A stretch of DNA of 64,000 nucleotides from Torpedo marmorata (taxonomy: Eukaryota), in assembly GCA_977017645.1 (NCBI GenBank), contig OZ360222.1:182900001-182964000 (forward strand), read 5' to 3'. The notes under the pieces are model-generated. The model was not told the DNA's origin, ran no database searches, and saw only the letters and a list, made by a program, of their open reading frames with translations. Numbering within the stretch: the first letter of the stretch is position 1; each line of letters starts with the position of its first letter. Of the stretch, positions 19,035 through 23,239 are shown piece by piece. A program made the position numbers and the translations under genes.

Positions 19035-19715
19035 TGTTTCATGAGATTAAATCAGGTTTGGTGGGTTTACAGAGAAGCATGTCCAGGCACAGGCTAAACA
19101 AACAAAGGATGATCTTTATTGCACACATGGGGAAATCATAACGGGGAAGACACAAAACAACACTTGATACTAAAACAATGTAAGCATTTACATCGGATAT
19201 AGCAATCTTTGATATCAATGGCCGCCTACTATTTCTCTCTCTTTATTACACATGGGCAGTAATATTCGGTAATTAGCACACTTTTACAAGACTGGGACTT
19301 CAACACGCACTCCCAGTTCCCTGTACCAATTGGGTGTTGCTCAATGCTAAGCATTCCCACACAATACTACGGCCCCACTCTCAGTGTAGTGCACACCTTA
19401 CCAACGACTCCTCCAGCGATGTCCACAGTTTGCGACCTGGCGTAGAGAAGTGTTCGTAGTCAAGACTGCACGTGGTGGGCTTTTAAAGTGCAGTAAGCTG
19501 GGGAGTCCGGCCCAGGTAATCAGTAAGTGATTTCAAGGGGCCAATGAGGTGTGCACTAATGGGTGGGAAGAGTCCAACCTTGGTTGGTAGGTGATGCGAC
19601 TTTGGACTAGGTGCCAGTCAGAGAGGTCACATGACCCTCCACAATCCACATTTCCACCTGGTTTCAGATGGAGGGCACATGACCCCCCACAATCCACATT
19701 ACATCGGAAGTCACA
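19035..19715 (-). repeat. 3' LTR of the ERV (U3 boundary uncertain, 19650 or 19715)
   Basis: AATAAA on the minus strand near 19117; TTTAAA TATA-like box near 19483; TG starts preceded by purine-rich GGTGG/AGTGG at both candidate boundaries. Confidence 0.75.
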
Positions 19716-20914
19716 CCACTCGCCAATCATATACAAAAGGTAAAAATATTATTACATAATGAAAGAAGAAAAATACATTGTTACAAAAGGTTAATACGTT
19801 GTTTCAAATGGTAAATACATTGTTTCAAATGGTAGATACATTGCAAGTGCCTTTTGCATTAATGGATAGGCACAACAAAAAGATGAAGATATTGTTTCAG
19901 ACAATGACAACGGCCTACCAACACCCCAGAGACCGAAAGGGTCATTGTTTTTCCCCATGGAGTGTTGTACTGCAGGAACTGGCCCCATATCTGTTCGGTT
20001 TTTTTTGTCAGTCACTGACTCGCATACATGGTCTCTCCGACTTGACCAGGATGTGTGTGCAGCGCGTCTCACCGACAACAGCACCGGTACCATCTTCGTC
20101 TGCGAGCAAGTAGTGCAAGGTCATCCGGCTTTCCCTTAATTTGTAGTACCACAGCCCTTTCTTTGGCCTGCGTCTCCACCACGGTGGCCACCCCACCTGG
20201 TGCTCCCCCATCGTTTGGAGGCACACATCCCACATGGCCGATGCCATGCCGTCCCGTGGGAAGCCAGGGGTCGGCCTGGCAGGTGCGCATCCAGGGCGTA
20301 CTGGTGTTCTCGTAGGAGCACCCTCGTTAGCTGAGCTGTGGACTGTCAGCCGTCTTATGCCAGGATGCCGTTCCTGCTCGCATTCCCACTGATTGCTTGG
20401 ACCAGTGCTGACTTAACTAGGTGCACCACATCGCCAAGGCGTGCTCCCTTTGTGGACCCACTGGGAGAGTTAGGACTGTTTGTGTGCAGAATTGTATGGC
20501 GAGGAAAAAGAAGCCAGTTCCCGAGGCACCCACTCCAGCAAGGATTATTGGAAGTGAGGTGGTAAAGTGGTGAGGGGAGTGGAAGAACAGCGTCATTACT
20601 GAAACATTTTGATTAAAGAGTCCATACAAGCAGCTCCCATAGCTGTCGTCGAGTGGGGTCGGCGTAGGTGGAAGACCCTCAGCTGTGTGTGCCGGAGCAG
20701 TGATGCAGATGCCGCAGTCTGGCATAGTGATGCTGTGCACACTGATAGGCTCTCACAGTGCGCACACTTGTATGCTCTCACAGTGCTGATCAGCATAGGC
20801 GAGAAGAGGAACAGCTTGAAGGGTAGTCTTCTCCAGTTGGGTGGGGGGGAGAGGGGGTGATGGGGGGTGGTGAGAGAAGGGGGAGAATTTGGGAGAACTC
20901 ACAAGATAGATTAG

Positions 20915-21856
20915 TCAGTGGTCACCTCTCGTGGGGGAGAAGCAGAGGGGAGACGCACTGGAAGCTCCACCCCCACAGGGCTCCCCCCCGCAATGCTCCC
21001 TCCAGGGAGCATACAAGTCTCTGTGAGTCACCAGCAGGGTGACGTCGCCGAACATCGCCTCAGCCCTGCAAACTTGAGCGGGCACTCCCCGCTCCATGTA
21101 CTCCAATCCCTCCAGGAGGGCAATGGCCTCCCGGACGATCCTCCCGGTCATTGGTCCCATGAGGGGCAAGACCACCTCAAGGTCGGGGTGCGTGGTGGCG
21201 ACTAAATAGCCTGCCAAGGCACCAGTCATCCTCGTGCTCCCTGGGAAGTGGTGCTCGCGGGCATAGATGCCTGCGATCAGTACCCGCTCCCTAAAAACCC
21301 GTGTTATCTCGCCAGCGGAGTGCCACTGCGACCGGCCATGTAGGCCCCATTCTAGGAAGGCAGGGAACCTGGCCCGGACCGCAGTCACCACCCATTCCCA
21401 TAGGGTGGTGCCGCCACCAACCCCCACCGGTGGCGCTCGCAAGGCGTTGTCACTCATCTGTTGTTCAGACAGATTGCCCAGTGCACTTGCATCCCGATGA
21501 GAGAGGCAGACATTGGGGGCCTCCTTGTCCCACAGCTGTAGCAGCCACGCGGTTAGGTGTTCGCCCGGCCGCTGGTGGTATCGGTCTCCTAGCCCAGTTA
21601 GCTTCTTGGCGGAGTAGTCCCGGGTCTCTGTAATCTCACAGTGACCGCCTGCATGCCCACCTGAAGTCCCCCCATTTTCAGATACCTGCCCGTATTGGAG
21701 GGTCGGCGGGGTGCCCTCGTGGCAGGTCTGGGACTGCGTGGTCACTGGCCGGGCTTGCAAAGACTCGGGCACACAGCGGGGAGGACGTGTGTTGTAGGAC
21801 TCATTTTCCTCATGGTCATCACCGTCCATGTCCATCCACACATGCCCATCTCCCAA
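20915..21856 (-). pseudogene. ERV-L/Fv1-like gag (capsid region)
   Basis: TRDYSAKKLTGLGDRYHQRPGEHLTAWLLQLWDKEAPNVCLSHRDASALGNLS and TLWEWV match the ERV-L Gag pattern RxYTxxEL...YRQxPGExxxxWLLRxWD. Confidence 0.8.
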
Positions 21857-22160
21857 CTACGTGTCCACCCTTACCCCCGCTGGACAATGGCTCGGAATTT
21901 AACTGGGTCAAGCTCTGAGCCATACTAGCGAGCTGCTTGCAGCTGATGTGTTTTCATCAGCTTGCAAGTTGCTTCTATGCCTTTCATTCTACTCTCATGC
22001 CCTGAAGCTCCCTTACTATCTGTGGGGCCCTCCTGCCGGTGCTGTTCATGACGAAGCATGCCATAACACACACACACACATGACAGGAGACCCACACTCA
22101 TGCTTGTTAATATAAGTTCAAACATCGTTAGTTATTTTGCATGTGTCTAGCTGAGACTCC

Positions 22161-22182
22161 TTGAACCCTGCTTGCAGCGTCA
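22161..22182 (-). promoter_or_regulatory. Primer-binding site, tRNA-Ser-like
   Basis: Minus strand TGACGCTGCAAGCAGGGTTCAA, 2 nt after the LTR end; compare the tRNA-Ser complement TGGCGC(T/A)GCGAGCAGGGTTCGA. Confidence 0.75.
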
Positions 22183-23239
22183 ATTGTTTCATGAGATTAA
22201 ATCAGGTTCGGTGGGTTCACAGAGAAGCAAGTCCAGACACAGGCTAAACAAACAAAGGATGATCTTTATTGCACACACGGGGAAATCATAACGGGGAAGA
22301 CACAAAACAACACTTGATACTAAAACAATGTAAGCATTCACATCGGATATAGCAATCTTTGATACCAATGGCCGCCTCCTATTTCTCTCTCTTTATTACA
22401 CATGGGCAGTAATATTCGGTAATTAGCACACTTTTACGGGACTGGGACTTCAACACGCACTCCCAGTTCTCTGTACCAATGGGGTGCAGCTCAATGCTAA
22501 GCATTCCCACACAATACTACGGCCCCACTCTTAGTGTAGTGCACACCTTACCAATGACTCCTCCAGCGATGTCCACAGTTTGCGACATGGCGTAGAGCAG
22601 CGTTCGTAGTCATGACCAAGGGACAAAGAGAATGAGCTCCTATCCACCTGTGACGCCACTTTCAAGGAATTATGTATCTGTATTCCCAGATCCCTCTGTT
22701 CTACTGCACTCCTCAGTGCCCTACCATTTACCGTGTATGTCCTACCTTGGTTTGTCCTTCCAAAATGCAACACCTCACACTTGTCTGCATTAAATTCAGC
22801 CTGCCATTTTTCAGCCCATTTTTCCAGCTGGTCAAGATCCCTCTGCAAGCTTTGAAAACCTTCTTCGCTGTCCACAGCACCTCCAATCTTAGTGTCATCT
22901 GCAAACTTGCTGATAAATTTACCACATTATCATCCAGATTATTGATATAGATGACAAACAACAATGGTTCCAGCACCAATCCCTGAGGCACACCGCTAGT
23001 CACAGGCCTCCAATCTGAGAAGCAATCATCCACCACTACTCTCTGGCTTCTCCCGTCCAGCCATTGTCGAATCCAGTTCACTACCATGAATATCTAACGT
23101 CTGAACCTTCCTGACTAACCTCCTATGCTGTACCTTGTTAAAGGCCTTACTAAAGTCCATGTAGACAACATCCACAGCCTTTCCTTCGTCAACTTTCCTG
23201 GTAACCTCCTCGAAAAACTCTATAAGATTGGTTAAACAC

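Follow-up and report, generated by a model that had tools for sequence, protein, structure and literature searches.

Within a 64,000-nucleotide stretch of the Torpedo marmorata genome (the window in what follows), two LTRs flank a long open gag frame and, as was originally noticed, no RT lies between them. The locus raises the question of what such an element is, how a form devoid of pol could have spread, and whether its gag was retained as a working gene. The original prediction described a fairly recent, non-autonomous class III ERV that kept gag and lost pol. With good confidence, and from sequence comparison, we regard the window copy as a dead member of a high-copy, pol-deleted class III ERV family, which resembles ERV-S and XtERV-S, carried a class I-type env and was likely mobilised in trans. 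The features are as follows.

19035-22638, minus strand: whole element; other genomic copies were used to set the LTR extent
19035..19703, minus strand: 3' LTR, ~669 nt, TGT...ACA
19704..19724, minus strand: polypurine-tract (PPT) position; the G-run of relatives is missing in the window copy
19900..20845, minus strand: env remnant, class I-type, decayed, frameshifted and internally deleted
19986-19903, minus strand: TM end
20133-20050, minus strand: TM block derived from the immunosuppressive domain/CX6CC
20597-20243, minus strand: further SU blocks
20719-20615, minus strand: SU block derived from CWIC
20846..20960, minus strand: family-wide deletion junction; ~3.3 kb of pro-RT-RNaseH-IN gone, join near 20900
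20915..21856, minus strand: 313-codon stop-free frame; startless middle section, coding for capsid, of an ERV-L/S-type, Fv1-like gag
21857..21988, minus strand: rest of the upstream gag sequence; ahead of it, ~390 nt of the gag 5' part are deleted
21989..22162, minus strand: leader
22163..22182, minus strand: PBS for tRNA-Ser, 18/20 bases matching, one mismatch within the opening TGG
22185..22638, minus strand: 5' LTR, 5' end truncated
22639..23239, minus strand: presumed CR1-type LINE fragment, adjoining the truncated 5' LTR, outside the provirus

The two LTRs form a real pair. Between 19035-19462 and 22185-22612 there are 19 differences in 428 ungapped sites (K2P 0.046), in agreement with the roughly 19 of 430 differences first estimated by eye. 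The extent given to the repeats at that time covered only the part that they share; the LTR is ~669 nt long and begins with TGT at 19703, its ends being read from other genomic copies. Near 19463-19465 the window 3' LTR lacks ~25-30 nt that other copies have, and the 5' LTR stops at 22638, cut by the fragment from 22639 that we take to be a CR1-type LINE; the missing part of the 5' LTR was not found in the 64-kb window. Because the 5' end of the 5' LTR is gone, no TSD can be read for the window copy, whereas the family LTR ends in TGT...ACA with a 5-bp TSD. The suspected tRNA-Ser-like PBS is confirmed by its match to the complement of a genomic tRNA-Ser sequence; that sequence occurs at five genomic places, of which ARAGORN calls two as tRNA-Ser. 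The window copy thus decayed after insertion, when the PPT G-run, bases of the PBS and the 5' end of its 5' LTR disappeared. The LTR start contains a 50-nt unit, of which the window 3' LTR has two copies (19623-19700) and the genomic locus L053 (oriented 7841-8742) ~17 in tandem. SINE-like fragments lie as an inverted pair at window 17330-17365 and 18040-18075, just left of the element.

The 313-codon frame had been taken for an open gag segment of the ERV-L/Fv1 type. It is free of stops, as claimed, but the 5' part and the start of gag are absent: relatives of the window copy have ~170 further gag codons upstream, and the ~390-nt deletion is common to the window copy and four others (L047, L048, L055 and L085). 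Because the 5' part is deleted, as in these four, the open frame of the window is a headless remnant. Its Gag type was upheld by a profile search. A single gag frame had no match in Pfam, PDB sequences, the ESM Atlas or the word index, and a profile of seven ray copies matched 44 proteins at E≤0.001. Three of the 20 clusters looked up are named "Friend virus susceptibility protein 1-like" (Narcine, E 2e-14; Huso; Pseudophryne), and most of the others contain unnamed or uncharacterised bird, amphibian and marsupial proteins. A structure model based on 46 sequences reached a pLDDT of 81.7, following a first model from seven close copies that was unusable (pLDDT 31). Among its top 13 structural neighbours, nine are Gag-type capsids, a weak match with all Z ≤5.8. 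The best neighbour has Z 5.8 and rmsd 3.2 with 78 aligned, the alignments with foamy-virus and HERV-K capsids span 139-155 residues (Z ≤5.8), and Foldseek returned no match at E≤0.001. The model suggests that the window frame has a Gag capsid fold. No CCHC motif lies inside gag in 38 loci; a CCHC match was present in three of the 38, always outside the gag match.

Downstream of gag, the original prediction had placed a probable integrase tail and no env, neither of which is sustained. Window positions 20845-19900 are collinear with the env of relatives, in blocks of shifting frame (tblastx E 1e-24 against L071), so that a decayed class I-type env occupies this region; the furin-site/fusion-peptide part of env has no match in the window 3' region. 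In the relatives L071 and L072, env includes a signal-like stretch, CWIC, an RDKR furin site, an immunosuppressive domain and CX6CC, and its TM matches TLV_coat (E 3e-11). The integrase of pol-bearing relatives ends just before the sequence that matches window 20845 onward, and its C-terminus falls inside the part deleted from the window copy. A possible small secreted protein at 20596-20898 was rejected, being out-of-frame env.

The loss of pol in a non-autonomous lineage was corroborated by its recurrence. When fetched loci were mapped onto one pol-bearing copy, the ~3.3 kb pro-pol deletion recurred in 32 copies in addition to the window, the fetched copies having been chosen by similarity and not at random. 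None of the 20 loci fetched as gag matches has pol, and 18 show both sides of the same junction from gag end to env start. Of 18 loci retrieved with the 3' frame, 11 have this junction and the other seven carry pol; it also occurs in three of the 18 top LTR matches. Solo LTRs account for 13 of these 18 LTR matches; an exact 5-bp TSD was found in nine of the 13, two being one duplicated locus. That locus is represented by L090 and L101, solo LTRs on one contig with shared flanks, which are a segmental duplicate rather than two insertions.

First-look searches of the 6.2-Gb assembly gave 3322 LTR, 10164 gag and 4581 env TM candidates, which are not copy numbers. Three structural classes were found in the genome: gag-pro-pol-env, gag-pro-pol with a decayed env, and the gag-to-env deletion. 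The env-bearing sister lineage (e.g., L071, L072 and L074) is abundant, as seen from the candidates of the TM query. Pol-bearing relatives had been expected elsewhere in the genome and do exist, with matches to RVT_1, RNase H, RVP and rve; all those examined are decayed by stops or frameshifts, so that none stands out as the helper. No relative of the element was found in viral_contigs.

The proposed class III type withstood an RT phylogeny. The closest pol homologues are from the stingrays Hemitrygon (63%) and Hypanus (64%), with the rest of the top 30 rows at ≤53%, which supports the cartilaginous-fish host first supposed and points to a ray. The RT tree contains 41 of 44 rows (three short rows dropped), among which there are no named HERV-L, HERV-S, SnRV or foamy sequences, a single class I RT and few outgroups; in it, the ray family and the Hemitrygon protein form one clade (99/100). 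Around this lies a 98/99 clade of bird, mammal, lizard, amphibian, lungfish, bichir, teleost and shark RTs, and a ray class I RT and two Gypsy RTs fall outside. In AU tests on 20 rows, a tree uniting the ray family with the class I RT was rejected (p 0.013), as was one uniting it with Gypsy (p 0.007). Against PDB, the ray family scored 129-132 bits for MLV versus 113-125 bits for foamy virus, and the class I control scored 232 versus 104. The integrase motif HX4HX28CX2C is present in five of seven matches and DX57DX35E, one short of the published DX58DX35E, in two of two; an in-frame stop separates gag and pro in three of the six copies printed. Pfam gave no match to a dUTPase at the pol 3' end, where the integrase end runs into the env start (L071/L072). 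By its sequence, the element is best placed as a class III ERV of the ERV-L/S group, with an RT apart from class I and Gypsy. ERV-L proper has a Leu PBS. The ray family departs from ERV-L proper in having an env and a Ser PBS and in the absence of a dUTPase at the pol 3' end. Because of the Ser PBS, the class I env and the missing dUTPase, its features appear to fit ERV-S/XtERV-S better.

One of the outgroup RTs is from the window itself. It belongs to a Gypsy-type element at 3899-8099 (minus strand) whose pol frame has integrase before RT, an order that we assume to be Gmr1-like. A second decayed Gypsy-type pol fragment is located at 641-2443 (plus strand). Other long element-like frames are found at 32299-34440 (minus), 39518-42348 (plus), 53173-58027, 35800-36630, 60824-62422 and 9617-10150; judged by motif, these six are presumably CR1, L1, Penelope, Rex/RTE and pogo-type elements. 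No host gene is evident among the window frames of ≥150 codons.

The age of the insertion was approached through LTR divergence. Among 22 pairs, the value of the window copy is the second lowest, the 21 others (from 25 loci tried) ranging from 0.041 to 0.152 with a median of 0.082. At the rates of 2.2e-9 and 2.2e-10 per site per year as quoted by Han (2015, PMC4422223), a divergence of 0.046 corresponds to ~10 to 105 My. The shark mutation rate is described as low (PMC10587355), and therefore the older end of this range is favoured. The low divergence of the LTR pair could be taken to mean that the family is still active and the window copy one of its recent insertions, which we consider highly improbable. 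Gene conversion could also lower the difference between two LTRs, the 18 best other LTRs lie at distances of 0.09-0.15 from the window LTRs, with no sister nearer than 9% among these top matches, the PPT, PBS and 5' LTR are damaged, and all pol-bearing copies seen are broken. With LTR pairs of the family 4-15% apart, the nearest of the 18 top LTRs at 9-15% and an age of ~10-100 My, the description "fairly recent" finds no support. In three other organisms, none of the contigs listed bridges the insertion site, and pieces of the element were covered. In contrast, a class I ERV with Gag_p30 and an MLV-like RT, located on many contigs of the same genome (e.g., C45:68333421, C40:49835456; L083, L084), gave 1232 candidates; all of its 150 scored gag matches are stop-free and most have identical scores, pointing to a very young burst.

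A second alternative concerns gag: the pol-less family may have made its own Gag in cis and needed helper Pol only, gag being kept by selection. This we regard as unlikely. Gag in the autonomous lineages is clearly constrained, with pairwise dN/dS of 0.20-0.25 against divergent pol-bearing lineages, and gag after pol loss shows weak constraint or none. Raw dN/dS within pol-less groups is 0.47-0.64, which is below one and below most of the shifted-frame controls of the same pairs (0.58-1.13), and long gag frames of ~450-490 codons with the N-terminal part included are found in the type-B pol-less copies L023, L039 and L040, both in favour of Gag in cis. About 26 of 126 other top gag matches, counted by eye, are also stop-free, but the ranking of these matches by protein score gives open frames an advantage. 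Against Gag in cis, transversions among 20 pol-less type-B copies (0.038/0.050/0.044 by codon position) show no third-position excess, and the window copy and the four copies sharing its 5' deletion were copied without a complete gag. The type-A pol-less group has a slight third-position transversion excess, and some constraint may have persisted after pol loss. Near-neutral change among pol-less copies and the loss of the 5' part in the window sub-lineage speak against the original view that gag was kept as a working gene. Fv1 is a mouse restriction factor, a single domesticated gene of homologous Gag type. That the window frame is likewise a domesticated restriction gene, as its 313 codons without a stop and its homologues annotated as Fv1-like could be read, is very improbable: the gag 5' part and start are absent, open frames are common among the top matches, and the window gag (dN 0.17) is as diverged from its sisters as these are among themselves. 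Unlike Fv1, it is one truncated copy among thousands.

Mobilisation in trans, the explanation we prefer, is read from structure and likened to what mammalian MaLRs are thought to do. The pol-less form would likely have spread by borrowing Gag and Pol in trans from pol-bearing relatives. The window sub-lineage would have needed Gag as well as Pol from them, and the window gag would have been a passenger because its start is deleted. The order we propose begins with an infectious virus, continues with env decay and intracellular copying, and ends with one pol deletion that would then have been amplified. The LTRs bear on the helpers. The 3' part of the window LTR aligns with the pol-bearing copy L087 over 98% of its length, at 88% identity. 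The window env remnant instead resembles L051/L078 (84-85% identity), yet the LTR 3' part of these two can be aligned over no more than 15-31%, and the window gag, too, matches the L051/L078 lineage. In the type-B copy L025, gag and the junction are the same, combined with an LTR, leader and 3' end that belong to the L070 lineage. These segment identities, taken against 19 pol-bearing copies, suggest recombination between lineages, although the LTR mosaic could have arisen by gene conversion instead. The simplest reading would be one pol-less cassette whose LTRs changed to match successive helpers. Under recombination, the deleted cassette would have changed its LTR type at least twice, each time to match the LTR of a pol-bearing lineage that was likely the helper at that time.

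MaLRs have a gag-only anatomy and depend on ERV-L. They differ from the ray family in being mammalian, in descending from mammalian ERV-L and in having no env, whereas the ray family appears to have originated independently from the ray's own pol-bearing lineage and kept an env remnant. In the MaLR features compared, the two are alike in being pol-less with a gag remnant, in very high copy number, in consisting mostly of solo LTRs and in having several LTR subfamilies (PMC4724089). HERV-S/ERV-S, as described in the parts compared, share the class III pol, the class I env and the lack of a dUTPase with the ray family, but are mammalian (PMC4724089, PMC8278194). The account of XtERV-S from Xenopus, as far as compared, presents a class III gag-pol with a class I env that has CWIC, furin site, ISD and CX6CC, together with a Ser PBS, TGT...ACA ends, a 5-bp TSD, an in-frame gag-pol stop, HX4HX28CX2C and no zinc finger, as in the ray family (there with HX4HX28CX2C in five of seven integrase matches), and deleted copies with replaced LTR halves (PMC8278194). 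XtERV-S is intact and low-copy and has a dUTPase; the ray family is decayed, without dUTPase and present in thousands of copies (PMC8278194).

The lineage had been thought possibly undescribed. Clade Huo, which includes class III ERVs, is reported to infect all major vertebrate lineages (Xu et al. 2018, PMC6001957). The elasmobranch Rh_ty_ERV3 of the whale shark appears beside HERVL, murine ERVL and HERVS in their S2 Fig by text order only, and inspection by eye shows homology between its Gag and that of the window from the RDYS motif onward (PMC6001957). Rh_ty_ERV3 differs in being a shark lineage known as a consensus only, with no pol-less derivative, env or copy structure in the parts of that paper compared (PMC6001957). 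The novelty is accordingly narrower: a homologous elasmobranch ERV was already catalogued, although the papers searched mention neither the ray family nor its pol-less form. No MaLR-like pol-less family of rays turned up in the literature, with repeat databases and some supplements outside the scope of the search, and term searches of the Squalomix preprint and a mobulid genome preprint gave class-level LTR text only, their supplements being places where the family may be listed. The kind is thus already known, elasmobranchs included, and what was found undescribed is the MaLR-like amplification of a pol-less form whose LTRs seem to have been exchanged between helper lineages.

Taken alone, the locus is unremarkable dead repeat DNA. 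For the family, we lean slightly toward the view that rays independently replayed the mammalian path from ERV-L to MaLR: an enveloped ERV-S-like virus would have lost env function, and a single pol-less cassette would have grown to thousands of copies with repeated LTR swaps tracking its helpers, all stages being preserved in one slowly evolving genome. The family adds a ray lineage without dUTPase and with a class I env to the ERV-L/ERV-S tree. With env-bearing, env-decayed and pol-less forms side by side in such a genome, it constitutes a natural series for testing if amplification in non-mammals is driven by the loss of env and of autonomy, and for learning how a parasitic element moves from one helper to the next.
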